Below, piece after piece: positions 2,493 to 33,793 of a stretch of DNA of 56,079 nt. The position numbers were made by a program, and so were the translations under genes. The notes below the pieces were generated by a model, which was not told where the DNA came from, did no database searches, and was given only the letters and a program-made list of their open reading frames with translations. This DNA is from a virus. Lineage: Duplodnaviria; Caudoviricetes. The stretch spans positions 1 to 56,079 of the IMG/VR virus record IMGVR_UViG_3300027736_000055; one strand, given 5' to 3'. Numbering within the stretch: position 1 is the first letter of the stretch; every line of letters begins with the position of its first letter.

Positions 2493-2515
2493 GTTATTAA
2501 GATTTAAAGAGAGCT

Positions 2516-2551
2516 AAAAAAGAAAGAGCTCAACAATATGTCGAGCCCTTT
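2516..2551 (-). terminator. Intrinsic terminator
   Basis: Minus strand: AAAGGGCTCGAC-atatt-GTTGAGCTCTTT (two G-U pairs), then CTTTTTT. Confidence 0.7.
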
Positions 2552-2575
2552 ACTACATTTTAACCTCTTAACCAT

Positions 2576-6073: not shown

Positions 6074-6404
6074 TGATGTCAACAAGGTGTTAATACGAAC
6101 AACGTCTGTAAAGCTTGCAATTAATGAGCAGATTGTACAGAAGGTTGTTGATTATCAATTTAAATCTGCTCACGAGGCCATGGGCATTCATCATACAATA
6201 GAACTTTGTGGGTTTGGTAAGTTTATTTTTAATAATAATAAAGCCAAGAAGAAGCTAGTGTCATTGCAAAAGACAGTGGAGATATTACAGAATGAACTAG
6301 ATCATCCAGAGACAGCTAAAAAGAATCCTGTGTTTTCTAAGAATGTATTGAAAGCTACAAAAGAACATATCGCATCACTTAAACCAATGATTAAATATGA
6401 TTAA
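6066..6404 (+). CDS. HU/IHF-like DNA-binding protein
   Basis: Helical N-terminus followed by TIELCGFGKF, resembling the HU/IHF signature. Confidence 0.65.
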   Translation: MSNDVNKVLIRTTSVKLAINEQIVQKVVDYQFKSAHEAMGIHHTIELCGFGKFIFNNNKAKKKLVSLQKTVEILQNELDHPETAKKNPVFSKNVLKATKEHIASLKPMIKYD

Positions 6405-6684
6405 CTTCGGACAGATATATGAGGGATGGAAAAATATGCTTGTTCCCTCATCAGAATTAAAAGATACAATAGAGAAGATTAGCGCTGAGCGCATGGCAAT
6501 TTGTAACAGTTGCATGTATCACTCTAAAAATCATCCCATCACTGTTCCTTATGATCATTGTATAGAATGTGGATGTATGTTAAAAGCTAAGGCAGCATGC
6601 TTGTCATGTGAATGTCCTAAGAAGTATTGGTTAGCACAAATGAAAGATCCTGAAGAAGAACAAGATTTAAAAACAAAATTATGA
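6397..6684 (+). CDS. Cys-rich metal-binding protein
   Basis: RMAICNSC...HCIECGC...CLSCECPKKYW. Confidence 0.75.
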   Translation: MINFGQIYEGWKNMLVPSSELKDTIEKISAERMAICNSCMYHSKNHPITVPYDHCIECGCMLKAKAACLSCECPKKYWLAQMKDPEEEQDLKTKL

Positions 6685-6947
6685 AGAATCCAGTCTTAAA
6701 GAAAGTAGATATTAACGAGCTCATGGATATAATGTCTGAGTTGTGGGAAAGAGGTGTAGATTACGTTGATATCATAATTAAGCCTGAAGACAACACTATA
6801 TCTTTAATGTTTACAGAAGATTATCTTTCAGACGAAGCCAAAGAAGGATTAGATGATGTAGAAGAAATTGAAGACGAGGAAATTGAAGACACATATGTGG
6901 AGGTGAGAAGTAAGCTAACAAATGATGATTTAAACCAACTAATGTAA
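6681..6947 (+). CDS. Acidic hypothetical protein
   Basis: 88 aa with ATGA coupling. Confidence 0.75.
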   Translation: MKNPVLKKVDINELMDIMSELWERGVDYVDIIIKPEDNTISLMFTEDYLSDEAKEGLDDVEEIEDEEIEDTYVEVRSKLTNDDLNQLM

Positions 6948-6951
6948 AGCT

Positions 6952-7218
6952 ATGAAACCTAATCACTATGAAAAAATACTAGGAGTACTAATAGAGCTTA
7001 AACAATCCCATCCTAAATGCAGTATGGGTAGACATTTAGCAACAGCTCTTGAGCCAAATACATGGAACATGACAGATGCTGAAGTATTTGATTGTCTAGA
7101 GAAATACAAATCACGTTTATCTATAGACATATTTCATTCTGATTCAGATATAGATAATATAATTAATGATGGTATTAATTTAAATAATATACTTCACGAA
7201 GATGAAGAAGACGACTAG
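6952..7218 (+). CDS. Hypothetical protein
   Basis: 88 aa, within the operon. Confidence 0.75.
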   Translation: MKPNHYEKILGVLIELKQSHPKCSMGRHLATALEPNTWNMTDAEVFDCLEKYKSRLSIDIFHSDSDIDNIINDGINLNNILHEDEEDD

Positions 7219-9571: not shown

Positions 9572-12153
9572 TGGCAATCATTAGATATACCAAAGATGCA
9601 ACCATCAGGTACGCCTATCTTAATATCTTTCCTGATCAGTTCAAGACTGAAAAAGAGAAGATGGATGAAAGTTGGATCAAGAATACAATGGATTACTTTG
9701 CTAACAAGGCATATGCTGAGTATGTAAAGAATCGAGATACGTTTGTTAAAAACTATGACTTGGTGAAGGGTATACTTCGTATGGAAGACTTCTATCAAGA
9801 GCCAGAGGTAAAAAGTTTTACAGATATGCTTACGGCAGATCTTGGTTTGCCTGGTTATGTAAAACATTATTCTATTCTAACAACTCCTCTTAATGAGCTT
9901 ATTGGAGAGATATCAAAGAGACCTGATTCATTTCGTGTTAAGGCATTTGATGATGATTCTCGTTCTGAGGAGCTTGAATTTAAGACAAGTATTCTTCAAG
10001 AATTTGTTTTAAATGAAGCCAAGCAAAAGATTGCACAAAGTATGTTAATGCAAGGTCAGGAGCCAGATGAGGAAGAAGTGCAAAAAATGGCAATAGAAAA
10101 AGTTAAAGACGAACTTGATAACTATACATCTATAGCTGAGAAGTGGGGAAACCATATTCTTACAGCACTCAAAGCTGAGTTTAATACTAAAGAGAAATCA
10201 GAGGATGCGTTCCGTGATCTTGGTATTACAGCTCGTGAGTTCTATCATATATATGAGGATAACTCTAAAACAGGATTTAATGTTGAGGTGGCCAATCCAA
10301 AGAATACTTGGTTCTTAACTACACCAGATAGAAAATATATCTCTGATCCTACAGGGCGTGCACAAGGAGCATATGCTGCTGGCTTAGTACAAGTGATGGA
10401 GCTATCTGAGATTATTGAAACATTTACATGGCTTGCAAAAGATGAGATTGATCACTTACGTTCATCATTACAAGATTATGGACTTATAAATGTTCGTGAA
10501 TCTAATCTAGGCAATCCTAATGCTGCTGATGGTATTGACTCTGTACAATATGATACATTTGATCCTCTTGTTCTTCAGACACGTATGATCATTGAATCTG
10601 AGATGAAAGAGAATGATGATGGACTAAAAGATTTCTTAGGACTTACATCAAATGTGTCTTCATTTGGATACAAATATGTAGTGGTGAGATCTTACTGGAT
10701 CTCTAAGAAAAAGATAGGTAAGCTTATTTATACAGATGAAATGGGCAATGAGCAATCTACGCTTGTTGATGAAAGCTATAAAAGTGGCACCATACCCACT
10801 CAAATATCATTAGAATGGGGATGGATTAATCAATGGTATCAAGGTGTAAAAATTGGACCAGACATCTATCACATCTCTCCATACAAGTTATTAAACTACT
10901 GCCCTATCATTGGGCTAGTACATGAGATCAAGAATACTGAGGCTAAGAGTATTGTAGATATGATGAAGCCGTTTCAGGTGATATACAATGTTTGTATGAA
11001 CCAATTATATAAGCTTCTTGAGAAAGAAGTAGGTAAGGTTCAGCTTATGTCATTAAGACATATCCCTATTCCTAAAGATGGAGATGCACAAGATGCTCTT
11101 GATATATGGGAAATGGAAGCACGTAATAGAGGAGTGGTATTTATTGACGACTCTCCTGAGAACTTAAAAGCTCCAAGTTCATTCAATCAATTTACAAGTT
11201 TAGACCTTACACGTACGCAGGAGATTCAATCTCGTTACACTCTAGCTCAACAAATGAAGAACGAGTGTTGGGAGCTTATTGGTATGTCTAAGCAACGTTT
11301 AGGTAACGTGTCAGCTTCTGAGACTGCTACAGGTACAAACAACGCTGTAACACAAAGCTACACACAAACAGAGTCATTATTTGTAGCACACGAATATGTA
11401 TTAGGACAGCTGTATCAGTCAATGATTGATGCAGCATTATATACAGAAAGTCAGAAACCAGAATCTACCATTTCTTACATTACGTCTGAAGGAGAGAATG
11501 CGTTTGTTCAAGTGAATGGATCTGAACTTAAGTTCCGTGATCTTAAGGTGTTCTTAACTAATCGTCCAGAAGATAAACAAATGTTCCAAGAGCTTAGAGC
11601 ATTATCTCAAGCAGTTCTTCAGAATGGTGGAAGCTTACATGACATCATTGAATTGTATAGCACTAACTCTGTACGTCAGATGAAGAAAGTGTTTAAGACT
11701 CTTAAAGAAAGACAAGAGCAGTTACAGGATCAACAAGCAAAACAACAACAACAACAGATAGATCAACAACAGCAACAAGCACAAGCTGCCTTACAACAAA
11801 CTTCTCAATTACAAGAAGAGAAAATTGCACATGATGATTATCAAGCAGAACTAGATAGAATCAACAAGGTACAGATAGCAATGATTGCTGCTGAATCTAA
11901 AGCAGGGCCATTATCAGATGTTGATACATCTGGCACTGCAGATGTTCTTGAGATGACTAAACTTACTGCTGATCAGTCTAATGCTGCTAAAGATTATCAA
12001 ACTAGATTAAGAGAGATCCAAAATGAGAGTCAAATGAGCAGAGAAAAACTAGCTGTAGAGAATAGAAAGATTGACGTTGACCTTAAAAATCAAGACAACG
12101 ATCTTAAGATAGCTAAGATAAATGCAAGCAATAGAGGGTCAAAAAGTAAGTAG
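9571..12153 (+). CDS. Portal protein
   Basis: 860 aa directly after terL; contains MKPFQVIYN, LIGMSKQRLG and a Gln-rich coiled-coil C-terminus; crAss-like synteny. Confidence 0.88.
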   Translation: MAIIRYTKDATIRYAYLNIFPDQFKTEKEKMDESWIKNTMDYFANKAYAEYVKNRDTFVKNYDLVKGILRMEDFYQEPEVKSFTDMLTADLGLPGYVKHYSILTTPLNELIGEISKRPDSFRVKAFDDDSRSEELEFKTSILQEFVLNEAKQKIAQSMLMQGQEPDEEEVQKMAIEKVKDELDNYTSIAEKWGNHILTALKAEFNTKEKSEDAFRDLGITAREFYHIYEDNSKTGFNVEVANPKNTWFLTTPDRKYISDPTGRAQGAYAAGLVQVMELSEIIETFTWLAKDEIDHLRSSLQDYGLINVRESNLGNPNAADGIDSVQYDTFDPLVLQTRMIIESEMKENDDGLKDFLGLTSNVSSFGYKYVVVRSYWISKKKIGKLIYTDEMGNEQSTLVDESYKSGTIPTQISLEWGWINQWYQGVKIGPDIYHISPYKLLNYCPIIGLVHEIKNTEAKSIVDMMKPFQVIYNVCMNQLYKLLEKEVGKVQLMSLRHIPIPKDGDAQDALDIWEMEARNRGVVFIDDSPENLKAPSSFNQFTSLDLTRTQEIQSRYTLAQQMKNECWELIGMSKQRLGNVSASETATGTNNAVTQSYTQTESLFVAHEYVLGQLYQSMIDAALYTESQKPESTISYITSEGENAFVQVNGSELKFRDLKVFLTNRPEDKQMFQELRALSQAVLQNGGSLHDIIELYSTNSVRQMKKVFKTLKERQEQLQDQQAKQQQQQIDQQQQQAQAALQQTSQLQEEKIAHDDYQAELDRINKVQIAMIAAESKAGPLSDVDTSGTADVLEMTKLTADQSNAAKDYQTRLREIQNESQMSREKLAVENRKIDVDLKNQDNDLKIAKINASNRGSKSK

Positions 12154-12240
12154 TTCTAATCATTTTGGTTAGAACAAAAACTATTAATGCTATATTATCT
12201 AAAATATTTAGCGTTTTTGACCTTTTCCTATTTGTTATTA

Positions 12241-12271
12241 ACTTATAGTGATTTAGTTTTATATCGAAAAA
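12241..12271 (+). promoter_or_regulatory. Putative -33/-7 promoter for the capsid genes
   Basis: TTTG (12241-12244), 19-nt spacer, TAGTTTTA (12264-12271); one mismatch to TAnnTTTG. Confidence 0.5.
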
Positions 12272-12295
12272 CCAATTAAAAAATCCCAACTACGT

Positions 12296-13543
12296 ATGGC
12301 CAATGATTTAGAAACCCCAGATTTTGGGAATTTCAGCATTCAGAGCACCATGGAAGGTGTAGGTAATGCAGAGCTATTAAATGATTTAATGGCTCCAGAA
12401 ACATCTACAGGCAATCCTGATGATATTCAAGATATAAATGCTCCTGAAGTTCCTAAAAAGAAAGCTGCAGTGAAAGCTCTAGCATCTGATGAAGAAGAAA
12501 ATAAGAAAGACGATGACGCTCCTAAACAGGATATCACTGATTTCTTATACGGTACAGATGATGATGAAGAAGAAGATGAAGATGGAACACCAGCTAAACC
12601 TGTTGCAAAAGCTACTGATACTACATCTGATGAAGACGAGGATGATGAAGATGGAGCTAATCCATTTACAGCATTTGCTAGAGACTTATTCAAGTTAGGT
12701 GGTTTCACTGCAGACGAAGATGAAGAAGAAGCACCAATTAATACAGCAGAAGAATTTTTAGATAGATTCAATGCTGAGAAAAAGAAAGGAGCTATTACAA
12801 TTGTTAATGAATTCATCGGACAGTTTGGTGAAGATTACCAGGATGCATTCCAGGCAATCTTTGTTAAAGGTGTTAACCCTAGAGATTATTATGGCACATA
12901 CAACGCTATTGAGAACTATGCAGAAATGGACTTGTCCAATGAAGCAAATCAAGTAGCGGTTATTAGACAAGCTTTAACTGATCAAGAATTTGATCAAGAA
13001 GATATTGAAACGGAGATTGAAAAACTTCGTAATTATGGTGACCTAGAAAGTACAGCAACTAGACATCATAAAGTGTTAGTAAAGAAAGAAGCTACAAAGC
13101 TTCAAAAATTGGAGCAAGAGAAAGAGACCCAATTAAAACAACAAGCTGCTTACAAGCAACAGTACGCACAGAACGTGGGTGCTATTTTGCAAGATAAGGT
13201 GAAAGCAAAGGAGTTTGATGGTATTCCTCTTAATCCAAAATTGGCTGGCGAACTACAAGATTTTTTGGTTACAGATAGATACAAAACAGGATCTGGCGAA
13301 ATGCTTACAGAATTTGATCGTACTATCTTGGAACTGAAGAGACCCGAGAATCATGAGATGAAGGTTAAAGTGGCACTACTTTTAAAAATCCTAGAAAAGG
13401 ATCCTACGTTATCAACAATTCAAAAGGCAGGTGTAACCAAAAAAACAGATACTCTGTTTGGAGAAGTTACACGACAATCTTCTAAGTCAGCCGTAAAATC
13501 TAGTAAAGGTTCTTCCAAGCCTACCTCATGGTGGAGTAATTAA
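12296..13543 (+). CDS. Scaffold-like head assembly protein
   Basis: Very acidic, low-complexity N-half and helical C-half; lies between portal and capsid genes as in crAss-like phages. Confidence 0.65.
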   Translation: MANDLETPDFGNFSIQSTMEGVGNAELLNDLMAPETSTGNPDDIQDINAPEVPKKKAAVKALASDEEENKKDDDAPKQDITDFLYGTDDDEEEDEDGTPAKPVAKATDTTSDEDEDDEDGANPFTAFARDLFKLGGFTADEDEEEAPINTAEEFLDRFNAEKKKGAITIVNEFIGQFGEDYQDAFQAIFVKGVNPRDYYGTYNAIENYAEMDLSNEANQVAVIRQALTDQEFDQEDIETEIEKLRNYGDLESTATRHHKVLVKKEATKLQKLEQEKETQLKQQAAYKQQYAQNVGAILQDKVKAKEFDGIPLNPKLAGELQDFLVTDRYKTGSGEMLTEFDRTILELKRPENHEMKVKVALLLKILEKDPTLSTIQKAGVTKKTDTLFGEVTRQSSKSAVKSSKGSSKPTSWWSN

Positions 13544-13570: not shown

Positions 13571-15124
13571 ATGGCAATTCAAACAATCCCAGGTTTAACT
13601 GGATTTACCTACGCTCGCGTTGCGTCTATGGACAAACGTGCAGTTGGTAAGTTAACAGACTCTAACCACTTGGAAAGCTTTCACTCGACTGAGCCAGCAG
13701 ACTATGATAAGAAAATTATCAGTTTGTACACTCAGAGCTCATTGTACAGCAACGACTTCTTGGACATGATCAACAAGTCAACTCCGTTCTACATTGATAA
13801 TAATAGTGATGCTTGGAAGTGGCAGGTAGCTGTACCTTACAAATTCCCTAAAATTATTGACATCCCTACTACTACCTTAGAATTATCTAAGCCAGGTATT
13901 GATGGACAAGAGTTCTCGTTAATCTTAGATACTAATGAATTCTCTAAGAACTCCATCATCTCTGTAGGTTCTCGTCAATACGGTCCTCGTTTCTACGTTA
14001 TCAAAGATCCACAGCCTTGGAACATGGGTTACTTGTACTCATTTACTTTAGTTACTGACAATCCAACTGTAGATTACGTATCCGCTACGTTCTTACAAAC
14101 TGGTATTGAGTTAGAATTAGTAGATGCTGCTATTGGTGAATTCGATCAAGACTTATTAGGATTACCACGTTTGGGTGAGCAAATCACAATGTTTGAATCA
14201 TTAGGTTCTGCATATGGTTATGAGCACAAAATTACTGAATGGGCTGATGATAAGATGTTAGTTAATGCTAATGGCTCACCTTTAGATATTTTAGTATATG
14301 CTCCACAAAGACGTAACCAATTACCTTTAACTCGTAATGATGTTAAGTGGGAACCGTTTATTGAATTCTGGATGCGTAAGTCTATGTTAGAACTTAAGGT
14401 TAAGCGTATGATCTGGGCTAAGCCTGGTAGCGTTAAGTCTGGTGGATCTAAGCAAGAGTTAAAGCGTACATCTGCTGGTGTTTATCACAGAATGCGTAAC
14501 AATGGTAACTTAGTTCAATACAACCGTGGAGAATTCACTGCTAACTTGATTCGTTCGGTATTTGGTGATTTATTCTATCGTCGTGTGGATGTTAAAGACC
14601 GTAAGGTTAAAATGTACACTAACGAAGCTGGGTTTGACGTGTTCCAACAAGCTTTGAAAAACGATGCTTTGAATTCAGGTTTGACTTTCATGGCTGATTC
14701 AGGTAATCGTTACATGCAAGGAGAAGGACAACACATCACTTACAACTTTGCATTCGATGCAATGGTTACTCGTGAGACTGGTCGTGTTGAGTTAATTCAC
14801 TTAAAAGAATTAGACCTTCCTCAATCTAACTTAGAATTTGGACAAAACAAGAAGTCTACTCCAGTATTTATGGTGTTTGACGTTTCTCCAATGTCTGATG
14901 GATCTATGGTAAATAACATTCGTGAAGTACGTATGAAGGGAGCTCCTTCTATGACTTGGGGTTATATCGATGGTACTCGTCATCACTTAGGATTTGCAAA
15001 ATCTCAAGGTATGTCAAGTGCTAACAAATTCCCAGGATACGAAATCTGGATGAAGGATCGTTGTGATGTATTTATCGAAGACTTGTCTCGTACAGTCTTA
15101 ATCGAAGAAATCCCTCAGTTCTAA
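13571..15124 (+). CDS. Major capsid protein
   Basis: 517 aa in the expected position; codon bias typical of high expression (CGT, TTC, AAC, GGT). Confidence 0.88.
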   Translation: MAIQTIPGLTGFTYARVASMDKRAVGKLTDSNHLESFHSTEPADYDKKIISLYTQSSLYSNDFLDMINKSTPFYIDNNSDAWKWQVAVPYKFPKIIDIPTTTLELSKPGIDGQEFSLILDTNEFSKNSIISVGSRQYGPRFYVIKDPQPWNMGYLYSFTLVTDNPTVDYVSATFLQTGIELELVDAAIGEFDQDLLGLPRLGEQITMFESLGSAYGYEHKITEWADDKMLVNANGSPLDILVYAPQRRNQLPLTRNDVKWEPFIEFWMRKSMLELKVKRMIWAKPGSVKSGGSKQELKRTSAGVYHRMRNNGNLVQYNRGEFTANLIRSVFGDLFYRRVDVKDRKVKMYTNEAGFDVFQQALKNDALNSGLTFMADSGNRYMQGEGQHITYNFAFDAMVTRETGRVELIHLKELDLPQSNLEFGQNKKSTPVFMVFDVSPMSDGSMVNNIREVRMKGAPSMTWGYIDGTRHHLGFAKSQGMSSANKFPGYEIWMKDRCDVFIEDLSRTVLIEEIPQF

Positions 15125-15130
15125 TATATT

Positions 15131-15277
15131 GCGAGCCTAGTGCTCGTCTCCAGCAATCGCTGGCTTTGATCAAGAAGTCTCCCACAACTCCTCCCCTCCG
15201 TGTGGGAGCTTCTTGAATTTCAGGGTGAAAGGATTGGGTTTCCTAGTCGCTAGGTCTTTCGTTAGACGTCACCCACA
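15131..15277 (+). ncRNA. Putative structured RNA element after the capsid gene
   Basis: GC-rich island with four consecutive stems, including the 16-bp bulged stem 15170-15216. Confidence 0.55.
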
Positions 15278-15303
15278 AAACCAATTATTAAATAAAACTA
15301 CAT

Positions 15304-15600
15304 ATGGGTAAGTGGAATACTTATGATATACAAAAGAAAAGTAGAGATAAATCTATTGTTCGTAATAAACTATATGTAAAAAATTATTTAGAAAATAAAG
15401 CTTGCATTGATTGTGGAAACTCAGATATTAGAGTTTTAGAATTTGATCATGCGAGAGGAGTTAAATTATATCACGTATCTTATATGATTCAAAAAGCATA
15501 TAAGCTTGATCTTATTAAAGATGAAATAGAAAAATGTGATATAAGATGTTGTAACTGTCACAGAATAGTTACACAAGAACGAAGAATTATTAATAGTTAA
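15304..15600 (+). CDS. Free-standing HNH endonuclease
   Basis: CIDCG...LEFDH...CCNCHR motifs; visibly more AT-rich than the flanking genes. Confidence 0.85.
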   Translation: MGKWNTYDIQKKSRDKSIVRNKLYVKNYLENKACIDCGNSDIRVLEFDHARGVKLYHVSYMIQKAYKLDLIKDEIEKCDIRCCNCHRIVTQERRIINS

Positions 15601-15628
15601 AACCAACAATAAATTAAAACTACATATC

Positions 15629-16597
15629 ATGGGTAAAATAGGTAAAATCTCTACTATTAAAAGAGAGTTCAATGACTCTTTAATTCAAACAATGCAGAGC
15701 GAGCTCTCTAAAAGAGGCATGTCACGTATTCCAGGAACTGGTGTATTCAAGTATCCTTACAAGGAACTTGGTGGTAAATACCGAACAGGATTAGATCCAG
15801 ATGCTGCTTACATTAAGCGTATTCTTGATACTACAGGAAGAGAACTTGAAATCGAACGTGTAACTAAGCTTCGTGAGAAGTTAGAAGCAGAGTTAGGTGG
15901 TATTAACTTAGGACCAAATGCACCATTTTGGAATGCAGGTTTATCTACTGGTTCAGAAGATAACACTCACGTTCAACCAGTTAAGTTGATGGATGGAGAT
16001 AACTATTTTGACTTCACTAATCCTTTTAAAGAGTTAGAGTTTGCATGGTTAAGAGTTCATCCAACTATTGCTTCTAGTTATGAATCATGGGTTAGAGGTG
16101 ACTTTCCTGCAGAGACACAGTTCTACGTTGTAGACGATGAGATTGAAAGTGCTATTGTTTACAAGAAGAAACAAGTAATCAATAAAGCAATCATCAAGTT
16201 TGATGCAATGAGTATTGAGAAGAAACGTAAAGTAGCAAGATTACTAGGCTTACCTATTAGCGATGAAACTAAAGAAGAAGTAGTCTACAACTTAGTAGAT
16301 AACATGTTAAAACAATCGGAGTTTAAAGAAGGTCAATACCAAGGTTTATCTCCAGTTGAAGTCTTTACAAGATTTGCAGATATGAAAGATGACTTGTTAG
16401 CTGTAAAAGATTTAGTGAAACAAGCATTAACACATTCAGTTTACCGTAAGAAACCTAATGGTAGAATCTACATGGGAGAACTTGAAGTGGCAATAGATGA
16501 AGAAGAATTAGTTAAGTTCTTATCAAATGAAGATAATCAAGACGAGTTACTAATTCTAGAACAAAAAATAAAAGGTAAAAAACTCGCAGCAGTATGA
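15629..16597 (+). CDS. Conserved post-capsid protein (crAss gene 75-like)
   Basis: 322 aa in the syntenic position after the capsid gene. Confidence 0.6.
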   Translation: MGKIGKISTIKREFNDSLIQTMQSELSKRGMSRIPGTGVFKYPYKELGGKYRTGLDPDAAYIKRILDTTGRELEIERVTKLREKLEAELGGINLGPNAPFWNAGLSTGSEDNTHVQPVKLMDGDNYFDFTNPFKELEFAWLRVHPTIASSYESWVRGDFPAETQFYVVDDEIESAIVYKKKQVINKAIIKFDAMSIEKKRKVARLLGLPISDETKEEVVYNLVDNMLKQSEFKEGQYQGLSPVEVFTRFADMKDDLLAVKDLVKQALTHSVYRKKPNGRIYMGELEVAIDEEELVKFLSNEDNQDELLILEQKIKGKKLAAV

Positions 16598-20026: not shown

Positions 20027-21034
20027 ATGAATGTCTTAATAACGCTTACTTCAGCAGGAACGGATACAGGACCCTTTAACCTTTATTCAAATGTGGATAA
20101 CTACACAACTGCTTTTGAGACCGACATCTCTAAAGGGATATTAGTTGCTGGATATACAAGTACAATAGTTCCTCCAGGAACTTCAGCTATTCGTGTTAAG
20201 TCAATAGGTATATGTACAAACTATGTTGATATAACATTAACTGTACCTTCTACCACAACAACTACAACAACTCGTGCTGCTACAACCACCACTACAACTA
20301 CGGCAGTAGGTAGTCCAACTACCACTACAACTACTACAGCACCTGTAGGCCCAACTACTACAACAACCACTACACCGTACGTGGGTCCTGCTACAACTAC
20401 AACTACCACTACAGCGCCTGTAGCTCTAACAACTACAACTACTACTACTACAGTATACGTAGGTGCTGCTACAACTACAACTACAACCACTATAGCAGCC
20501 ACTACTACTACTACCACAACTAATGTTTTTGTTAGTTGTCAAGAATGGAGAAATGATACAGCTGAAGAAGCAATTATAACTTACACTCCTTGTGGAAGTA
20601 GCACTCCTGTAAGTGGCTATACTTTAGCTGATACATCTAGTGTATGCGCGGTTTATGGTTCTATAACTGTTACATCAGGTGGTGCCTTAACATTAGTTGG
20701 AGCTTGTTCTGCACCAGAGCCAGCTACAACAACTACAACAACTACTGGAGCAGCTGTAGGTACAACAACTACAACTACTACCACTGCTTTAGTATATTAC
20801 AGTTTTCCAATAACAACAGGTTATGGAGATTCTGCATCAGCATGTGGTGATTCATCTACTAATATGAGTATTTATGGTAGTTCACCGTCGTTTTTAAGTA
20901 ACGCTACATTCTATAATGATTACACTTTACTTAGTCCATTTGATGGTAGCAATTTCTATTACAGCAATACAAGTAATAATGAGTACGTACAAATTAGTAG
21001 CATCGGAAGTCAGACTGCAGGTGGTAGTTGTTAA
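20027..21034 (+). CDS. Mucin-like poly-Thr virion protein
   Basis: Ten runs of 7-9 Thr separate three small beta-rich domains. Confidence 0.75.
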   Translation: MNVLITLTSAGTDTGPFNLYSNVDNYTTAFETDISKGILVAGYTSTIVPPGTSAIRVKSIGICTNYVDITLTVPSTTTTTTTRAATTTTTTTAVGSPTTTTTTTAPVGPTTTTTTTPYVGPATTTTTTTAPVALTTTTTTTTVYVGAATTTTTTTIAATTTTTTTNVFVSCQEWRNDTAEEAIITYTPCGSSTPVSGYTLADTSSVCAVYGSITVTSGGALTLVGACSAPEPATTTTTTTGAAVGTTTTTTTTALVYYSFPITTGYGDSASACGDSSTNMSIYGSSPSFLSNATFYNDYTLLSPFDGSNFYYSNTSNNEYVQISSIGSQTAGGSC

Positions 21035-21077
21035 TATTTAAGATGTAAAAAATCCTGTTTGTTGGTTTACAGGGTTT

Positions 21078-21109
21078 CTCCTAGGGACACATTGTCTCTA
21101 GGAGTTTTT
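21078..21109 (+). terminator. Intrinsic terminator
   Basis: CTCCTAGGGACA-cat-TGTCTCTAGGAG followed by TTTTT. Confidence 0.85.
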
Positions 21110-21159
21110 ATTATTATAACCAATTTAGTTAAGCTATATAACTGATTCAATTACAATTG

Positions 21160-21192
21160 TTTGGTAAATACAAAATTTAATTTATATATTTA
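21160..21192 (+). promoter_or_regulatory. Putative -33/-7 promoter
   Basis: TTTG (21160-21163), 21-nt spacer, TATATTTA (21185-21192); follows the terminator. Confidence 0.5.
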
Positions 21193-21219
21193 GGACAATT
21201 TAACTAAACTACGAATAGG

Positions 21220-22446
21220 ATGACTGATAATCAGGACATGCTTTTCCGTCTTGAAGGACTTTTAAGACAAAAGAAAAGCAAAACATTCTATGCTGAAAAG
21301 CTAGGAATAACTGAAAATGAAGTAGATGAATTGTTAAAAGAGATAAGAGAAAGAGATCAAGAACCAAACGATACATTGAAAGCACCATTGTTATGTGAAT
21401 CTGTTCGCAAGGTTAACAATGAGAAAGGAACAATAGAGAGCACATTAATTCTTGACTTTGAACCAAAGGATGACCTAGAGCTAGCTACTCTACACAAGAT
21501 TAATCTTGATAAATATATCATTACAAATTACTGGTCTAAACTATTACCCAACGGTAAGTTTACATCATCAGTATTCTCTAAGAAAAAAGAGGCTAATGAT
21601 TACACAGCTGAAGACTTTGCAAAGTTCTTAGTAGATTATAAATCCAACTACATACCCCAGCAACAACCAGAGCTAGAACGTGCTAAACTAATAGATGTTG
21701 AGATATCATTATCTGATTTTCATTTAGCTAAGAGGCATATTGATGGAGACAATTCACCAGCTATTAGATGTAAAAGATACTTCAATGCAGCTGTAAGTCT
21801 TGCATATGATGTAAAAGCATTGTACGATATTGATAGAATTGTATTTCCAATATCAAATGATTTCTTTCACACAGATAACTATCAACATCAAACAACTGCA
21901 GGTACTCCACAAGAAACTATTATTGATTATGCACATGAGTATGAACTAGGATTTGCTCTACTTGTAGATACAATCAAAATGTTAAAAAAGATTTGTAAAG
22001 AAGTGCATGTAGTATTAGTACAAGGTAATCATGATAAGACTAAGTCTTATTATTTAGCTCATGCTCTCGATGTTTACTTTCACGCAGATCCTAATATATA
22101 CTTTGATAGAGAACATAGTGTAGTGAAAGCTACAATGTTAGGAGAAACATTTATTGGTTACCATCATGGTAACTGTAAGATTGAGGATCTTCCTTTATTG
22201 TTTGCTACACATCCTGATTACAGTGTAATGTTTGGATATGCTAAGTACAGAGAGATACATACAGGTGATAAACATCACTACATGGCTAAGGAAGTGAAAG
22301 GGGTAAGAATACAACAAATGCCTAGCTTGTCTGGTACAGATAGATGGCATCAGGATAACAACTTTGTTCATAGTGTTAGAGCAGCACTTGCTTTAGTGTA
22401 TGATAAAAAGTTAGGTAAGATTTGTGAATTTGAACATCGAATATAA
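21220..22446 (+). CDS. Calcineurin-like metallophosphoesterase with an N-terminal HTH
   Basis: SDFH, NDFFH, GNHD, HHG and GDKHH motifs in the canonical order; FYAEKLGITENEV HTH-like start. Confidence 0.8.
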   Translation: MTDNQDMLFRLEGLLRQKKSKTFYAEKLGITENEVDELLKEIRERDQEPNDTLKAPLLCESVRKVNNEKGTIESTLILDFEPKDDLELATLHKINLDKYIITNYWSKLLPNGKFTSSVFSKKKEANDYTAEDFAKFLVDYKSNYIPQQQPELERAKLIDVEISLSDFHLAKRHIDGDNSPAIRCKRYFNAAVSLAYDVKALYDIDRIVFPISNDFFHTDNYQHQTTAGTPQETIIDYAHEYELGFALLVDTIKMLKKICKEVHVVLVQGNHDKTKSYYLAHALDVYFHADPNIYFDREHSVVKATMLGETFIGYHHGNCKIEDLPLLFATHPDYSVMFGYAKYREIHTGDKHHYMAKEVKGVRIQQMPSLSGTDRWHQDNNFVHSVRAALALVYDKKLGKICEFEHRI

Positions 22447-22449
22447 ACA

Positions 22450-23172
22450 ATGGCAACATTAAGAAAATTAGTCTCGGATGTGCGTTCTATGCACAAGTTA
22501 TTATCAACCGACAACTTGATAACAGATCGGGCTATTGCATCTGAAATAAAGAACGATGCGTTATTGTTAATTAAACGTGAGACTAATCTTCGTAAGCTTT
22601 GGGCTACAGATACTATCTTTACAACAATTCCTTGCTTAGAAATGGTACAAGTTTCCATCACTGAATGTTGTGATTATGTGGATGACTGTACAATTGCTAG
22701 AAGCAAATACAAGATACCTAGAATTGGTGAAGGTAATTATCAATACTTAATTCAAGGAGTTTACTCTGTTAATGCTTTAGGGGGTAAAGGATATAAGTTT
22801 AAAGAAATAACTGTAAACAGATATGCTAATCTATTAAAACTTCCCCTTATAAAGAACAATCAATATTTTTGGATAACTAATGATTATTTGTATATCAATA
22901 ATCCAATGATCCAAAAGATAAGATTTGTTGGATTGTTTGAAGAAGATATACCTAATGAGCTACGTTATGGAGGAGATTGTAATTCACAAGAAGTAAATTC
23001 AGGATGGTGTTTAAATCCTTTAGATAGAGAATCATTTGTTCCAGGTTATCTAGAGAAACAAGTATTGGAATTAGCTTCTCAAAAACTATTACAAACTTAC
23101 TTCAGAATCAAGGATGACTTGACTCAGAACAATATTGACGGACAATCACCTAATGCTCCAGCAGGATCATAA
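22450..23172 (+). CDS. Tail ring protein
   Basis: 240 aa; crAss-like synteny before the IHF, ring and muzzle genes. Confidence 0.55.
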   Translation: MATLRKLVSDVRSMHKLLSTDNLITDRAIASEIKNDALLLIKRETNLRKLWATDTIFTTIPCLEMVQVSITECCDYVDDCTIARSKYKIPRIGEGNYQYLIQGVYSVNALGGKGYKFKEITVNRYANLLKLPLIKNNQYFWITNDYLYINNPMIQKIRFVGLFEEDIPNELRYGGDCNSQEVNSGWCLNPLDRESFVPGYLEKQVLELASQKLLQTYFRIKDDLTQNNIDGQSPNAPAGS

Positions 23173-23658: not shown

Positions 23659-24651
23659 ATGTCGTACTACTATAAATACAACTTTGTTTCCCCTGAGCCC
23701 ATCTATGCTTTAGTAAAAGAGGAGTTTAAAAGCTACTTTGATACAGGGGCTGTTGATGACTTATTGTTTCCTACTTATCTAGACAAGTGTCTTCGTAAAC
23801 TTGGTAGAGCCACATATGTTATTGCTGAACAGATTCTTTATATCGAAGACTTTGAAGCACGTCTTCCAGATAACTTTTTTGCTGCACGTGAGGCTTGGAT
23901 GGTTGCCGAGATCCCTCAATATCCATATCAAACTGCTAACTCTTTCTATTCTCAAGCTGCTGAAGAAACCACTATTCAAGTGGCTCCTTTGATTGTAAAT
24001 GGTACAGAGTGTACTGCTGGTAATTGTAAAGATCCAGCATCTCCTTGTTTTGATCACTGTATGCCTCAGATCATTCAAGCTGTATACAAAACAAACAATC
24101 AAGTAGCAAGATCTTACAGACGTGAGTTCTTATTAATGCCAGGTAATATATCTGCTAGAAGTAATTGTACTGTAGATTATAACACTGCAGCTTGGGAGTT
24201 TAATGCATCTTCTCCAGGATTAGCTTCTAACAATAGTTCAACTCCAGGGTCCTCTTCTTACAACTCTTTTGATATCAGAGATAATAAGTTTGTCACTAAC
24301 TTCAGAAGTGGAGTAGTGCATTTATTATTTTATGCTACAGAATATGATTGTGGGGGTAACCAACTAGTTCCTGATAACTATCGTATTAGAGAGTATGTTG
24401 AGGCATTTGTTAAATATAAAATATTTGAAATACTTACTAATCAAACTAATGATGAAACGTTTCAACAGTTACAACAAAAGCTTACATATTATAAACAGCT
24501 TTCTGAGGAAGCATTTATTATGGCCGATATCGAAATAAAGAAACAGGATCCATATGCTAAGCAAAGAAGAATAAAGAATGACCTGAATAGGTTTAATATG
24601 TACGAACTGCCAAATAGAACAAATAGATATGGCTGGAGAAGAAACAACTAA
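23659..24651 (+). CDS. Tail tubular / ring protein
   Basis: 330 aa with EARLPDNF and LVPDN motifs, directly before the muzzle gene. Confidence 0.65.
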   Translation: MSYYYKYNFVSPEPIYALVKEEFKSYFDTGAVDDLLFPTYLDKCLRKLGRATYVIAEQILYIEDFEARLPDNFFAAREAWMVAEIPQYPYQTANSFYSQAAEETTIQVAPLIVNGTECTAGNCKDPASPCFDHCMPQIIQAVYKTNNQVARSYRREFLLMPGNISARSNCTVDYNTAAWEFNASSPGLASNNSSTPGSSSYNSFDIRDNKFVTNFRSGVVHLLFYATEYDCGGNQLVPDNYRIREYVEAFVKYKIFEILTNQTNDETFQQLQQKLTYYKQLSEEAFIMADIEIKKQDPYAKQRRIKNDLNRFNMYELPNRTNRYGWRRNN

Positions 24652-29566: not shown

Positions 29567-30891
29567 TGAAAGGTAAAGTTACATGTTCTTGTGGTCATTC
29601 CTGGAATACATCAGATTCTAGTAAGAAGGATGCGTCTGTCTGTCACATATGTGGTAAAGACAACACAATGAAAGATGGTGGTTGGTTAGAAAAGTACAAT
29701 GATGGAGGTCCTGTTCAACCTAACTATAATGATTACTCTGTATCAGCTCCTGAAGGATTCCAAGGTGATGGATATAGTAACGTAGGACGTAACTATTCTC
29801 CTGCATGGGGAGGACAGTTTAAAGAAGGAGGAGAACTTCCTAATGTAACAGTTAAAGGTAAAAGACAACCTATCACTGTTACAGATAAGAATGATCCTAG
29901 ATTAAAAGCTTATCAAGATAGCTTAAGTTTATTTAATGAAAGTAAAAATACAGAAGATAAAGTTTCTAAAATATTTGCAAAGGCATATAAGAGAGTAGGA
30001 TTTGATAAATCAACTATTGATGAAACTTTATATAGAGGAAAAGATATTATATTAAATCCTAAAAAATATACAAAAGAACAAGAACATGAGGGTGGTCCTC
30101 GTGTAAAAAATTATAATAAAAAAGGTTTATATTCTTCATCATTTCCTGGTGAAGAATATTTAGGTACACCTGAATATCCAGCAACTATTCAAAATCTAAT
30201 AAAATATAATAAAGAATATATTAAATATCATAGTCCATACTTAAATAGTTTGGATGAAGATATAAATGGATTAACTGCTAAAGAAAGAATAGAATTAGCA
30301 AATATTACAAATGCTAGTTTGCAAAAACAAAATAATATTATAAAAAGAACAGGTTACAACCCTACTTATTTTATACCTAATGCTGAAAGGACTCCTAATT
30401 TAATATTTAAAAAACCAACACAACCTGTAGTATATAGACCAGAATCTACTCCTCAATCTACAATAGATTTTATGGAGGGAAACTATGGACAAGAACCTAT
30501 TATAGAAATACCACAATCACAAGCAAGTGCATATGGAGAAGTGGTAGATCCTAGAACAGGATATACACACATGACTAGACAAGGAAGTCCTATGTATCCA
30601 ATGGTTGGTCAAAGAGTTCCTGAGATGGCTATGGGAGGATCTATGCCAGGAGCTGTAGGATTCATGTACGCACGTACAAATGATCCTGCTCCTAGTAATG
30701 GTAAGTATGCTAAGAAGACAAAAGCTTCTGCACAGAATGGAAAAGAGATGAGATACTATCAAGAAGGGCTAGACTTCAAACCTAAATCTATATCGAGAGA
30801 TGGTAGCCAGTTGACAAAACTAGATCAGCTTACAAACTTTACAAATTATAATAAACCAACCAAAGGTGGGTGGTTAGATAAATACAAATAA
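29566..30891 (+). CDS. Putative cargo (internal virion) protein
   Basis: N-terminal CxC...CxxC knuckle; GGWLxKY repeated at both ends; several xxGG motifs. Confidence 0.6.
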   Translation: MKGKVTCSCGHSWNTSDSSKKDASVCHICGKDNTMKDGGWLEKYNDGGPVQPNYNDYSVSAPEGFQGDGYSNVGRNYSPAWGGQFKEGGELPNVTVKGKRQPITVTDKNDPRLKAYQDSLSLFNESKNTEDKVSKIFAKAYKRVGFDKSTIDETLYRGKDIILNPKKYTKEQEHEGGPRVKNYNKKGLYSSSFPGEEYLGTPEYPATIQNLIKYNKEYIKYHSPYLNSLDEDINGLTAKERIELANITNASLQKQNNIIKRTGYNPTYFIPNAERTPNLIFKKPTQPVVYRPESTPQSTIDFMEGNYGQEPIIEIPQSQASAYGEVVDPRTGYTHMTRQGSPMYPMVGQRVPEMAMGGSMPGAVGFMYARTNDPAPSNGKYAKKTKASAQNGKEMRYYQEGLDFKPKSISRDGSQLTKLDQLTNFTNYNKPTKGGWLDKYK

Positions 30892-30892
30892 T

Positions 30893-33793
30893 ATGAAGGC
30901 TCAAATATTAAAATTAGCAGGTGTAAAAACTGAGAAAGAGTTCTATCGTAAATTTCCTACGGAAGAAGCTTTTATGGAGAAACATGGTGAAGCTTTACAG
31001 AAAGCTCAACTTGGTGCAAAGATGCCAAGACAGATGCCAGTAAATATTCCTGCTCTTCCAACTTTACAAAATACATTTTCATCAACTCCTGGTTTTGGAG
31101 CTACAGCTAAAGCGTATGGAAAAAATCTAGGTAATGATGTTCTTAAAGGAGTGAATGCTTTGGTTAAACCTGTAGACTTATCTACACCTAGTGGACTTGC
31201 AGGTATGATTGGTGGAATTGGAGCTGGTATAAATACTATAAAACAAACTGAGAAAAACATTGGAGAGCTTGAGAAGTATGGAAAGGTAAGTGATGTTGTA
31301 TTACAAGCTCGTAATACAAAAGCTGCGCCACCTCAAAGACTATATGATTTTCCAAAGTTAGTTACGGGTATGAATCCTAAAGGAACAGGTACTAACTATC
31401 TAGCTGCAAGGAATGGTACAGAGATACAAAATACATACGCTCCTAATGATATATACACTGACTCAGGATATGAGCCATTGAATGATAGTAATGTTAAGCA
31501 ATATAAGAAAGGTGGCAAGATGAGAAAAGCTGAAGGCGGATTTAGTCTTGATCCGTTTGCTGGCATTGCTGGTGGTATTGGTGGATCGTTAGGTTCTGCT
31601 GCAGGTAAAGGTTCTGGTAAAGGTGGACCTGGTTCTACAATTGGTTCTACTCTTGGTGGTATTGCTGGATCATTCATTCCTATTCCAGGCGTAGGTACAG
31701 CGTTAGGTAGTCTTGCTGGTGGATTCATTGGTGGACTATTTGATGCACAAGATCAGAATGAACAACAAGCTGCTCAAGATAAGTTAGATCAAAACATGCA
31801 AGGTTTAGCATTCCAATCAGGAGCTAGAAATATTCAGCAAACCAATAAAGGATTTATGGAAGATGGAGGATGGGTGAGTAATGACTGGCAGCCACAAGTG
31901 ATAACATCATTTGGTGACCATAGTATGAAAGACTTATTAGCACCAGATCCTATGATGAACACATTACGTGCAGGTGGAAACTTGAAGTATTACACTCCTC
32001 CTAGTGAGAGAGCTATGTATACAGGTAGAGCAGAGAATGGTGCACAGATGGCTATGGGTGGAGATTTACAAGTTCATCGTGGAGAAGCTGAAACATTATC
32101 TTATAATCCTTACATGCCTAATAATGGAGAAACAGTAATGTTTAGAGGACCTTCTCATGATAACGGTGGTATGCCTATATCTTATGGACAGAACGGTATA
32201 GAAGTAGAAGGAGGAGAACCAGCTCAAGTTATGCAAGATGGTGGTAAGGCAGATAATTTAGTTGTATTTGGTAATATGGAGATACCAGGATATGGCGCTA
32301 ATGAAATAGGTGACCCTAAAGCTAAAGGTATGAAGTTTAAAAGATATATAGCTGAATTGAGTAAACAAGAAGCTAAGAACAATAAGTATATGGATAAGTC
32401 TCTTGACTTAATTAATAGAGCTGATACTAATGATCCATTCCAACAACTATCATTTAACTCTGGTAAAGCTATGATGCTAGGTTCTCAAATGAACTTAAAG
32501 AGCATAGCTGATAAGAAGAAGAATGCTGCGGCTGTACAAGATGCTATTCTTGAGACTGCTGAACAATACGGAATGGATAGTGCAAAGCTTGCTAAGCAAA
32601 AGATTGCTAAGTTTGGTGGTAAGTTTACATCTTCATCTATGGCGCAAAATGGTATTAATCTAAACCCAATTGCAGAAAATCTTCCTGGATCATATATTCC
32701 TGATTTAAGTAAGCAAATAATGGATGCTAAGTCTGCTGCAAAGATTTCAGAGCAGGCACGTCATGCAAATGATTTTAACATAGCTAACTATATCCCAAGC
32801 AGGTTATTTCATCAAGGCGTACCTCTTAGAGATACTATTGGTGTATTTAATCCAGAATTAGGTCAGTACGAAGTTCCTGAGGTAGAAAAGATAAACCGAA
32901 TTACTGTACCACGTATTAATGATGAACCAACTACTGGTAACTCAATTTTACAAGGCAACATCTTTAATACGCAGAAGCAAATGAAAGCTAAGAATGCGTT
33001 TCCACTTGAAAGTATTCTACAGATGGGATTAACTTCAGCAGCACCGTTCTTAAGAAACAAATACAATGATAGTGTTAGTCCAGAACAACTTGCTCCTGAA
33101 ATGTTAGCAGCAGCTCTTAATCAACAAGAGCCTGTAGGCGCACAGTTATATAACCCAATGCTTACACAAGCTACAAGCATTAGCTTACAAGATCAATTAA
33201 ATGAGGTGACAGCACAAACACGTGCTGCTGAAAGACTTGCTCAAGGTGATCCTTCAGCATTAGCAATGATTGCTTCTCAAGGACAACAAGCTAAGAGTAA
33301 GATATTAGGCGAGCAATTTAGAATGAACCAAGCTGAGAAGCAACGTGTGTCAGAACAAAATGCTGCTGTACTTAATGATGCTCAGATGAAGAACTTAGCA
33401 TTGCTAGATCAGCAAATGGTTAGACAGTTTGAAGGAAGAAGTAAAACTAAAACACAAGCTATCGAGATTGCTAAAAACATTGCTGATAAGATTGCTAAGA
33501 AGAAATCAGAAAACCTTGCAGCTAACGTTTATCAAAACATGTATCCTGATTATAACTTTACACCTTCTGGTACAGCTTACAAGAATCCTTATAGTATGGC
33601 ATCTTTCGGTCCTGGTATGGGAAGAAGCTCTGGACAAGGTATGCTTGGCGGTATACAAATGGGTAATAAAAACTTATTGCCTACAAACTATGATAAGAGA
33701 GGTAACCCCACTCACTATAAACTTATAGGATCAGATGATGATTTAGATGCTAAAAGAAATGGTGGAATCGTAAAAGCATTCAAGAATTTCTAA
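30893..33793 (+). CDS. Cargo / ejection protein with a glycine-zipper membrane segment
   Basis: GSTLGGIAGSFIPIPGVGTALGSLAGGFIGGLF, GPSHDNGG...EVEGGE and Gln-rich helices. Confidence 0.65.
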   Translation: MKAQILKLAGVKTEKEFYRKFPTEEAFMEKHGEALQKAQLGAKMPRQMPVNIPALPTLQNTFSSTPGFGATAKAYGKNLGNDVLKGVNALVKPVDLSTPSGLAGMIGGIGAGINTIKQTEKNIGELEKYGKVSDVVLQARNTKAAPPQRLYDFPKLVTGMNPKGTGTNYLAARNGTEIQNTYAPNDIYTDSGYEPLNDSNVKQYKKGGKMRKAEGGFSLDPFAGIAGGIGGSLGSAAGKGSGKGGPGSTIGSTLGGIAGSFIPIPGVGTALGSLAGGFIGGLFDAQDQNEQQAAQDKLDQNMQGLAFQSGARNIQQTNKGFMEDGGWVSNDWQPQVITSFGDHSMKDLLAPDPMMNTLRAGGNLKYYTPPSERAMYTGRAENGAQMAMGGDLQVHRGEAETLSYNPYMPNNGETVMFRGPSHDNGGMPISYGQNGIEVEGGEPAQVMQDGGKADNLVVFGNMEIPGYGANEIGDPKAKGMKFKRYIAELSKQEAKNNKYMDKSLDLINRADTNDPFQQLSFNSGKAMMLGSQMNLKSIADKKKNAAAVQDAILETAEQYGMDSAKLAKQKIAKFGGKFTSSSMAQNGINLNPIAENLPGSYIPDLSKQIMDAKSAAKISEQARHANDFNIANYIPSRLFHQGVPLRDTIGVFNPELGQYEVPEVEKINRITVPRINDEPTTGNSILQGNIFNTQKQMKAKNAFPLESILQMGLTSAAPFLRNKYNDSVSPEQLAPEMLAAALNQQEPVGAQLYNPMLTQATSISLQDQLNEVTAQTRAAERLAQGDPSALAMIASQGQQAKSKILGEQFRMNQAEKQRVSEQNAAVLNDAQMKNLALLDQQMVRQFEGRSKTKTQAIEIAKNIADKIAKKKSENLAANVYQNMYPDYNFTPSGTAYKNPYSMASFGPGMGRSSGQGMLGGIQMGNKNLLPTNYDKRGNPTHYKLIGSDDDLDAKRNGGIVKAFKNF

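Follow-up and report, generated by a model that had tools for sequence, protein, structure and literature searches.

A predicted 3′-UTR RNA hairpin of crAss-like phages with a conserved loop complementary to a leader motif of phage genes

Among the base-pairing small RNAs of bacteria are some that derive from the 3′-untranslated regions (3′-UTRs) of mRNAs, CpxQ, SroC and DapZ being examples. Others work through a loop: the C-rich loops of Staphylococcus RNAIII and RsaE pair with Shine–Dalgarno sequences, and plasmid antisense RNAs use YUNR U-turn loops. Phages have RNA hairpins that act on termination just downstream of promoters, namely lambda boxB, which works with N, and HK022 put. Hairpins can also be signals at the level of DNA, as in the N4-type hairpin promoters. 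The probable hosts here, Bacteroidota, initiate translation without Shine–Dalgarno pairing.

Two published studies bear on the comparison. The available part of a study of E. coli small RNAs describes pairing through terminator loops (PMC11979758), and the accessible text of a study of phi14:2 describes a tripartite host-RNA-polymerase promoter motif upstream of middle and late genes (bioRxiv 10.1101/2020.03.07.982082). In the main text of the latter, as available, the words ‘hairpin’ and ‘terminator’ each occur 0 times. A literature search at the level of titles and listings, combining crAss-like phages or Crassvirales with small, antisense or non-coding RNA, found no report of an element such as the one we describe.

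The element lies in a window of 56,079 bases, the whole of an IMG/VR virus record that is estimated to be ~48% complete. The window codes for a P22-like portal (9571–12153), a crAss-type major capsid protein (13571–15124) and the crAss-type tail ring proteins 2 (22450–23172) and 1 (23659–24651); from 5714 to its end, (almost) all genes are on the + strand. Genome bins of Bacteroidota, two of them of Sediminibacterium (capsid protein 95% identical), contain related phage contigs, and the clade carrying the hairpin has been sampled from lake and marine sources. The source is probably a large clade of uncultured crAss-like phages whose hosts are Bacteroidota. A 4-kb nucleotide query around the site found no match among phage records, and the only matches of the flanking protein in cultured phages are below 60% identity, listed at 24–29%.

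The gene upstream of the hairpin is 20027–21034, with its TAA stop at 21032–21034. The gene downstream, 21220–22446, encodes a 408-aa nuclease-like protein of PHROG 704 (‘DNA repair exonuclease’). Between the two, the + strand carries the following features.

21045–21049, + strand: A-run before the hairpin (4–9 A conserved in relatives; alignment columns 6–8 invariant or at least 90% A).
21050–21058, + strand: 5′ arm of the hairpin, AAATCCTGT (fold and covariation, with two-sided changes in 8 of 9 pairs).
21059–21068, + strand: loop TTGTTGGTTT, the proposed pairing seed (UU[G/A]UUGGUUU in relatives, UUGGUUU being the strictest part).
21069–21077, + strand: 3′ arm of the hairpin, ACAGGGTTT (fold and covariation).
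21078–21109, + strand: predicted intrinsic terminator, a 12-pair G+C-rich hairpin (21078–21104) followed by TTTTT (21105–21109) (fold).
21157–21198, + strand: putative Bacteroidota-type promoter of the nuclease-like gene, with TTTG at 21160–21163 and TATATTTA at 21185–21192 (conserved; assigned by resemblance to the Bacteroidota promoter consensus).

The initial annotation had read 21059–21068 as the loop of a stem-loop with a strong terminator immediately behind it, and folding of 21050–21109 bears this out. The minimum-energy fold holds both hairpins (−27.4 kcal/mol, z = −3.98, with 0 of 200 shuffles as stable), as does the centroid fold, and the loop is unpaired. The first stem has nine pairs, one of them G·U, and ends at 21077; the terminator hairpin begins at 21078, leaving a spacer of zero. 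The arms of the two hairpins abut without overlap and so do not share the bases of an antiterminator/terminator switch of the RAT or attenuator type. The second hairpin (21078–21109) has the G+C-rich stem, the short loop and the directly following U-tract of an intrinsic terminator. The first has none of these, having a 10–13-nt loop, an A-U-rich stem and no U-tract directly after it. Further on, beyond the terminator, lies a conserved inverted repeat with AACYAA half-sites (ATAACCAATTTAGTTAA, 21116–21132). Rfam 15 gave 0 matches at gathering thresholds over the whole window, and a permissive search of 20900–21300 returned as its best match STnc370, whose 23.5 bits (E = 0.8) fall short of the 54-bit cut-off. 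The hairpin is, as predicted from its fold and its conservation, a new 3′-UTR RNA motif without an Rfam family.

Like CpxQ, SroC and DapZ, the phage element comes after a stop codon and shares the intrinsic terminator of its mRNA (stop at 21032–21034, hairpin from 21050, terminator at 21078–21109, no promoter of its own), and it has a short conserved single-stranded stretch complementary to several translation-initiation regions. That stretch is the unpaired loop, in which one G/A position varies among 236 loci, and the complementary sites are concentrated at translation-initiation regions, a statistical result from sequence only. Where the element differs from these three RNAs is in coming from a Bacteroidota phage and not an enterobacterium, in carrying its candidate seed in a hairpin loop, and in being predicted from sequence; its candidate targets, moreover, are the phage's own leaders with a phage-specific motif, not a Shine–Dalgarno region. 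In the manner of RNAIII, RsaE and the YUNR loops, it presents 7–11 nt toward several ribosome-binding regions, and UUUG/UUGG fits YUNR. Unlike RNAIII and RsaE, it has a U/G-rich loop facing an A/C-rich leader that lacks a Shine–Dalgarno sequence, and it is a single hairpin with a terminator rather than a multi-hairpin RNA. With boxB and put it shares the form of a short hairpin in a phage operon, near a terminator and with a sequence-specific loop. Those elements stand in 5′ regions (for boxB/nut-type sites, after the promoter and with an N-like protein), whereas the phage element is at the 3′ end, past the stop and against the terminator, and any partner protein is hypothetical. As in the available account of phi14:2, a long conserved host-type promoter region precedes a gene here, the nuclease-like one; by contrast, phi14:2 lacks the loop sequence, and none of its called leaders contains AAACCAA.

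Relatives were anchored on the downstream protein (21220–22446) and then on two of its distant homologues, giving three overlapping sets. The first comprised the best 80 IMG/VR loci (67–89% identity), of which 79 had upstream sequence; all 79 carry the hairpin with exact TTGTTGGTT. With a scan for the loop pattern, the pair of hairpins was also seen ahead of homologues of no more than 29–35% identity; because such a scan finds the loop by construction, we re-anchored on two of the distant proteins. The element is present in 80 of 80 loci of the second set (70 with TTGTTGGTT, 10 with TTATTGGTT). The third set, 77 loci with upstream sequence, has 66 of the G form, 8 of the A form and 3 with displaced copies, each of these a tandem pair of hairpins ~850 nt upstream, shifted by an inserted HNH gene. 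Pooled, the protein-anchored loci come to 236 (162 distinct sequences), and all 236 have the loop core upstream of the nuclease-like gene; the sets overlap in some contigs, and their anchor proteins are ~30–35% identical between sets. The distance to the nuclease-like gene is ~100–250 nt in 229 of the 236 and ~800–900 nt in the other 7, which have an inserted HNH gene. HNH endonuclease genes have inserted beside the hairpin in two lineages, and in the window one lies beside a copy of the leader motif described below.

Across these loci the hairpin is kept while its sequence changes, with 78 distinct hairpins among the 236. The stem is an uninterrupted 5–11 pairs in 225 loci and has one mismatch or bulge in the other 11. 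Loop cores in the 228 strictly scored hairpins are TTGTTGGTT (210) or TTATTGGTT (18), with no third variant, and the 11 loci outside strict scoring all have TTGTTGGTT. The G/A change recurs on different stems; every other loop position is constant over the 236 loci. The neighboring terminator keeps its form, and the sequence of its stem (and loop) varies freely. The gene upstream also differs among relatives, with the hairpin beginning 10–20 nt past its stop codon, and we found no conserved promoter before the hairpin in relatives, the sequence upstream of the A-run being unrelated. Taken together, the changing upstream gene, the position just past its stop and the lack of a conserved promoter fit a 3′-UTR element, which is how the initial annotation had described its origin. 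Two loci found through the N terminus of the upstream protein (L093 and L094) lack the hairpin, and the nuclease gene is not near them either.

For covariation we used a gapless alignment of 57 distinct sequences centered on the loop, about half of them from the pattern scan. Loop invariance in this alignment is therefore partly a matter of construction, and it is the protein-anchored sets that provide unbiased evidence for it. One scan match, L241, was left out, as it lacks a terminator and is likely a chance match, and L021 was swapped for the identical window sequence; 131 of the 243 core-word matches in the scan had fewer than 6 of 7 stem pairs and were counted as background, a few true short-stem hairpins included. 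Standard pairs fill 87.5% of stem cells in the 57 sequences. Two-sided changes are seen in eight of the nine stem pairs, 147 cells in all, and values as high as these come from 0 of 500 shuffles; when the partner is slid by 1–3 columns as a control, pairing falls to 26–53%. A check proposed at the outset, for stem covariation with an invariant loop in relatives, thus found both.

The imperfect pairs tell us the strand. Read on the + strand, the stems hold 27 G·U, 0 A·C and 9 other mismatches in 399 cells, and the protein-anchored subset has 21 G·U against 1 C·A. Each + strand G·U is an A·C mismatch on the − strand, which indicates that the structure was selected in the + strand transcript. On this pattern of base changes, the hairpin is a predicted sense-strand RNA structure, and the alternative offered in the initial annotation, that the other strand displays the motif as a protein-binding decoy, is disfavored.

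The same counts bear on the idea that the hairpin is a signal in DNA, be it a regulator site of the form AAC(C/T)AA, a homing endonuclease site, or a single-stranded hairpin or cruciform. A hairpin or cruciform in DNA would keep its pairing on both strands or on the template strand, and here the − strand would carry mismatches; the wobble, being G·U only, points to RNA of one strand. The inverted repeat with AACYAA half-sites after the terminator (ATAACCAATTTAGTTAA) speaks for a DNA signal, as do the HNH genes that have inserted beside the hairpin and beside a leader motif copy, but homing endonucleases exploit conserved DNA and do not cause its conservation. The leader motif is, in addition, strand-specific (64 against 6, see below). 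We think a DNA-level signal very unlikely.

Could the hairpin simply be an accessory of a compound terminator, or a stabilizer of the 3′ end, whether as part of a Y-shaped or two-hairpin structure or as a leftward terminator in which the A-run provides the U-tract? In every case it has an A-run before it and an intrinsic terminator directly behind it, and on the − strand one reads a hairpin and then a T-run. An accessory of this kind, however, needs no invariant 10-nt loop, and the terminator next door lets its own stem and loop vary freely. As a terminator, an A-U-rich stem with a 10–13-nt loop is poor. Read leftward, the 27 G·U pairs become A·C mismatches on the − strand, and all genes from 5714 to the end of the window run the other way. 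This explanation strikes us as improbable.

What, then, does the loop match? The window holds three copies of its complement, AAACCAACAA: at 1806–1815 (−), at 15600–15609 (+) and, within the hairpin itself, at 21059–21068 (−). Shuffled sequence is expected to hold 0.15 copies, and 0 of 100 shuffles reach three. Both copies outside the hairpin are on the sense strand just before a start codon, those of 1795 (−) and 15629 (+), and each begins at the last A of the preceding gene's TAA stop. The initial annotation had placed exact complements in the leaders of these two genes, and both are there. It had also placed the shorter word AAACCAA in two leaders; the copy before the HNH gene is where it was said to be (15278–15284), and the one before the 12296 gene is at 12269–12275, not 12279–12285, a difference of 10 bases. 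The candidate pairing sites in leaders are listed here.

1806–1815, − strand: full 10-nt complement (11 nt with the next A) in the leader of an 87-aa gene, 1532–1795 (−).
6381–6387, + strand: AAACCAA in the leader of a 95-aa gene, 6397–6684.
6932–6938, + strand: AAACCAA in the leader of an 88-aa gene, 6952–7218.
12269–12275, + strand: AAACCAA in the leader of the pre-capsid gene, 415 aa, start 12296 (AACCAA in 8 of 8 orthologous leaders).
15278–15284, + strand: AAACCAA in the leader of the inserted HNH gene 15304–15600 (near-duplicate of the next gene's leader).
15600–15609, + strand: full 10-nt AAACCAACAA in the leader of the 322-aa gene after the capsid gene, start 15629 (AACCAA in 7 of 8 orthologous leaders).
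30853–30859, + strand: AAACCAA 40 nt before the start of a 966-aa gene, 30893–33793.

The copy at 12269–12275 is 7 nt past the −7-box-like word TAGTTTTA, which probably puts it at the 5′ end of the mRNA. Over the window as a whole AAACCAA is not over-represented (15 copies against 10.25 ± 3.26, a number that 11 of 100 shuffles reach). Its placement is another matter: 7 of the 15 copies are within 40 nt before called starts, where 7-mers of the same composition average 0.86, and 7 of 40 called leaders in the window carry it.

We extended the count to complete or near-complete genomes of relatives, six of them supplying 665 leaders and 8 hairpin-bearing ones serving for a genome-by-genome test. 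Genes were called simply, from the first ATG of the longest non-overlapping open reading frames of at least 50 codons, and leaders were the 40 nt before them; words of the same composition served as controls because the leaders are A-rich. AAACCAAC is the second most enriched 8-mer in the 665 leaders, with 18 of its 50 genome-wide copies (both strands) there, a 21-fold enrichment, and ranks first of 56 same-composition words (mean 2.9). AACCAACAA has 13 of 27 copies in leaders and ranks second of 84 (mean 1.4), behind its own register shift. AAACCAA ranks between first and third of 21 in each of the 8 hairpin-bearing genomes, in 6–10 leaders each, and in leaders it is strand-specific, with 64 sense copies to 6 antisense. 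These counts come from related genomes with generally A-rich leaders and are not independent of one another. The check called for in the initial annotation, of motif counts in leaders against elsewhere, has thus turned up a strong and strand-specific concentration in leaders.

The motif stands 9–40 nt before the ATG, mostly 13–26, and precedes ~5–17% of the phage's genes, those flanking the capsid gene included. A −7-box-like word stands a few bases ahead of it in 28 of 98 cases, which would place the motif at the 5′ end of the mRNA. AACCAA is kept in the leaders of five orthologous groups, in both clades and in every or nearly every genome: the 415-aa pre-capsid gene (8/8), the 322-aa post-capsid gene (7/8), and genes of 338 aa (7/7), 86 aa (6/6) and 95 aa (5/5). 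The flanks are looser, the position after the core being C, T or A about equally and the third position after it A in 70%. What is conserved in leaders is thus the 7-mer AAACCAA (or AACYAA), not the full 10-mer, and it is this core that would face UUGGUUU, the loop's strictest part, in a duplex.

Our pairing test controlled for loop composition: all 165 arrangements of 8 U and 3 G were ranked by the number of leaders with a predicted duplex at or below −10 kcal/mol. With 30 of 901 leaders, where the mean is 6.7 ± 5.2, the real loop came out on top, and the next four were its own register shifts. A second line of evidence would have been change in loop and leaders together, and here the result is different. 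An A in the loop would be expected to prefer U to C at the facing leader position. Phages with the A variant of the loop keep AACCAACAA leaders and show no compensating leader changes: outside the hairpin, five A-variant records (G006–G010) hold 14 copies of AACCAACAA and 1 of AACCAATAA, and in the leader of the post-capsid gene the base is C in two of them (G006, G008) and T in another (G009), so that one of three matches. It is the G-loop genomes that hold more of the T-containing copies. This result leaves a predicted 7-nt seed unrefuted, gives it no support from covariation, and fits a protein-binding hairpin equally well. The proposal in the initial annotation, that a seed loop pairs with the leaders, therefore stands in part: the loop is conserved, the stem covaries and the motif is concentrated in leaders, but loop and leaders do not change to compensate one another.

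The protein-binding explanation deserves to be set out in full. It holds that the hairpin is bound by an RNA-binding protein of phage or host, which might modulate the adjacent terminator, stabilize the 3′ end or mark the late mRNA, and that complementarity to leaders is incidental. Hairpins recognized by protein classically combine an invariant loop with a covarying stem, as here; the position relative to the terminator and the downstream gene is fixed in 229 of 236 loci, and the G/A change recurs in the loop with no matching change in leaders. Against this, we have identified no candidate protein, and, with no overlap between the two hairpins, an alternative antiterminator pairing is lacking. 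The loop's first rank of 165 for pairing with leaders would have to be chance, as would the exact 10–11-nt matches to it in leaders. We consider a protein site unlikely, if by no means negligible.

Returning to pairing between loop and leaders, we asked where else the two words occur. phi14:2 has no exact loop core (one-mismatch matches number 31, against 33 for the reversed control), AAACCAA in 0 of 110 leaders and no homologue that we could find of the flanking gene. We had considered this phage as a model for the element; lacking both the loop core and the flanking gene, it serves as a single and distant negative control only. Nor does the leader word behave as a general signal of the host: on a 400-kb contig of the candidate host bin it is not enriched (2 of 353 leaders, rank 9 of 21), the host being assigned by binning only. 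With these two controls the leader word looks specific to the phage rather than a translation signal of its host, again with the host assigned by binning only. A hairpin copy encoded by the host was also sought; the only hairpin in three bins with related phage contigs lies on the phage contig itself, and the loop word is no more frequent than its control (10, 4 and 12, against 8, 0 and 14 for the reversed word).

These bins also allow us to weigh the thought that a host RNA is what the loop imitates or binds, for instance ribosomal RNA or the GUUGGUU-bearing D-loop of a tRNA. Two points speak for it: the loop is invariant over very deep phage divergence, and the candidate host bin has one copy of GTTGGTT in the spacer behind its 16S gene, presumably in a tRNA D-loop. 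The 16S rRNA of that bin, however, contains neither UUGGUU nor AACCAA, and pairing with or mimicry of ribosomal RNA is rejected for it; as to the bins at large, the loop sequence is not enriched in any of the three by the counts above. Of all the explanations we entertained, a host RNA is the one we believe least.

Transcript data touch the locus lightly. Three metatranscriptomes hold a small share of the stretch, and only the marine run (X3) covers the hairpin region; its contigs are assembled and come from relatives, and as such cannot show ends, strand or level. Two of these marine contigs begin at 21198, 6 nt past TATATTTA, a weak hint that concerns the promoter of the downstream gene only.

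Our preferred reading is that the hairpin is a base-pairing riboregulator whose loop would pair with the leader motif, in trans or between the ends of late mRNAs, and so alter translation or stability. We hold it tentatively, as a possibility that falls a little short of an even chance. The hairpin would be transcribed on the + strand as the tail of whichever gene lies upstream, at the end of the head-gene block, and a covarying stem of 5–11 bp would present the invariant U/G-rich loop UU[G/A]UUGGUUU. The loop would pair with the phage-specific leader motif (A)AAACCAA(C/U)AA, with its 3′ part, UUGGUUU, as the seed, and in several genes the motif would lie at the mRNA's extreme 5′ end. Since the hosts apparently do without Shine–Dalgarno pairing, the duplex would cover the A-rich region where the ribosome lands and might thereby affect how the mRNA is translated or how stable it is. 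Action in trans is conceivable, by a 3′ fragment protected by its terminator, as is action in cis, the 3′ end of a long late mRNA pairing with its own 5′ leader. Besides the lack of covariation between loop and leaders, two observations count against pairing: the 7-nt core AAACCAA (or AACYAA) gives a weak, A-U-rich duplex, and an invariant loop is equally to be expected of a protein-binding site.

A wider form of the proposal treats the hairpin at the 3′ end of the capsid operon and the leader word AAACCAA as a private code, by which the phage would control translation in hosts that do without Shine–Dalgarno sequences. In a bolder version, the loop might pair with AAAACCAA at the start of the same ~9-kb late mRNA, which would extend from a promoter ahead of 12296 as far as the terminator at 21109, and the joining of 3′ and 5′ ends would control the stability or translation of the capsid operon, much as the cyclization sequences of some RNA viruses bring their ends together. 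We offer this reading as a conjecture and regard it as doubtful.

crAss-like phages are among the most abundant known, and we found no description of a regulatory RNA in them. The alignment of 57 sequences, which could be extended by the 78 distinct hairpins, defines a new RNA family and could mark this phage clade in metagenomes. If the RNA works in trans, a compact riboregulator for Bacteroidota could be made of it. The pair on offer, one invariant 10-nt loop and one leader word in 5–17% of the phage's genes, is a testable one, and it bears on how a phage may tune its own translation in hosts that initiate independently of Shine–Dalgarno sequences.

The gene directly upstream of the conserved hairpin (21050-21077, plus strand) is highly variable among relatives of the phage. 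For this gene, at 20027-21034, we found only 12 related loci, most of which have only the first ~70 residues in common, and its counterparts are often threonine-rich, with ACT/ACA repeats. The conserved hairpin is therefore the point at which a hypervariable gene gives way to a conserved block. Elements near this boundary and elsewhere are listed here.

Features in the window and in related loci (plus-strand coordinates for the window)
L031 (a locus of the related genome G004), 2140-3000: ~205-aa gene beside the conserved hairpin
L510, L513 and L514 (related loci), 330-1200: homologous ~205-aa gene
21116-21132, and the equivalent position in relatives: conserved inverted repeat, directly 3' of the terminator
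15618-15631: example of the AACTACAT(AT) leader block
12285-12298: further example of this block
12153-12175: 7-pair hairpin GTTCTAA...TTAGAAC, directly 3' of the portal gene
15125-15629: G+C-rich stretch, followed by a 98-aa gene (15304-15600) and its flanking leaders

The ~205-aa gene occurs in two lineages, where homologues lie between the conserved hairpin and a remnant of the terminator. It comes with a second hairpin, of identical loop and different stem, and with a terminator of its own. Judged by eye, its product has a DHK...N...N motif and begins with a zinc-finger-like region, so that the gene looks like an HNH homing endonuclease.

On the other side of the terminator, the inverted repeat lies about 65-80 nt upstream of the presumed transcript start of the nuclease-like gene, at 21198. 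It reads ATAACCAATTTAGTTAA in the window and ATAACTAATTTAGTTAT in many relatives, and its half-sites are similar to the leader word AACYAA. The repeat may serve as an operator, or it may form the third block of a tripartite promoter.

Many of the genes that have the leader word are also preceded by a second conserved block, AACTACAT(AT), which stands immediately 5' of the ATG in the window and in the related genomes G001-G011. The hairpin behind the portal gene carries TTTTGGTTA within its loop and 3' arm and is without a T-run; its motif differs from that of the conserved loop.

The DNA that follows the capsid gene (about 15125-15277) is rich in G+C and appears to be structured. The 98-aa gene was called HNH in the initial annotation; a Pfam search with it gave no match. 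Two near-identical leaders flank it, of the form AAAACCAA...TAAAACTACATAT(C)ATGGGTAA, and it looks as if the gene had been inserted here and had thereby duplicated the 322-aa gene's leader.

As for the host, two genome-collection contigs (L447 and L448; 111,986 and 59,453 bases), with a capsid protein 95% identical to that of the window, were binned in two Sediminibacterium genome bins. Other contigs fell in bins of Cytophagales, Kapaibacterium and uncultured Bacteroidetes, and also of Tissierellales and Clostridium. The binning, as the sole source, hints at a host among the Bacteroidota.
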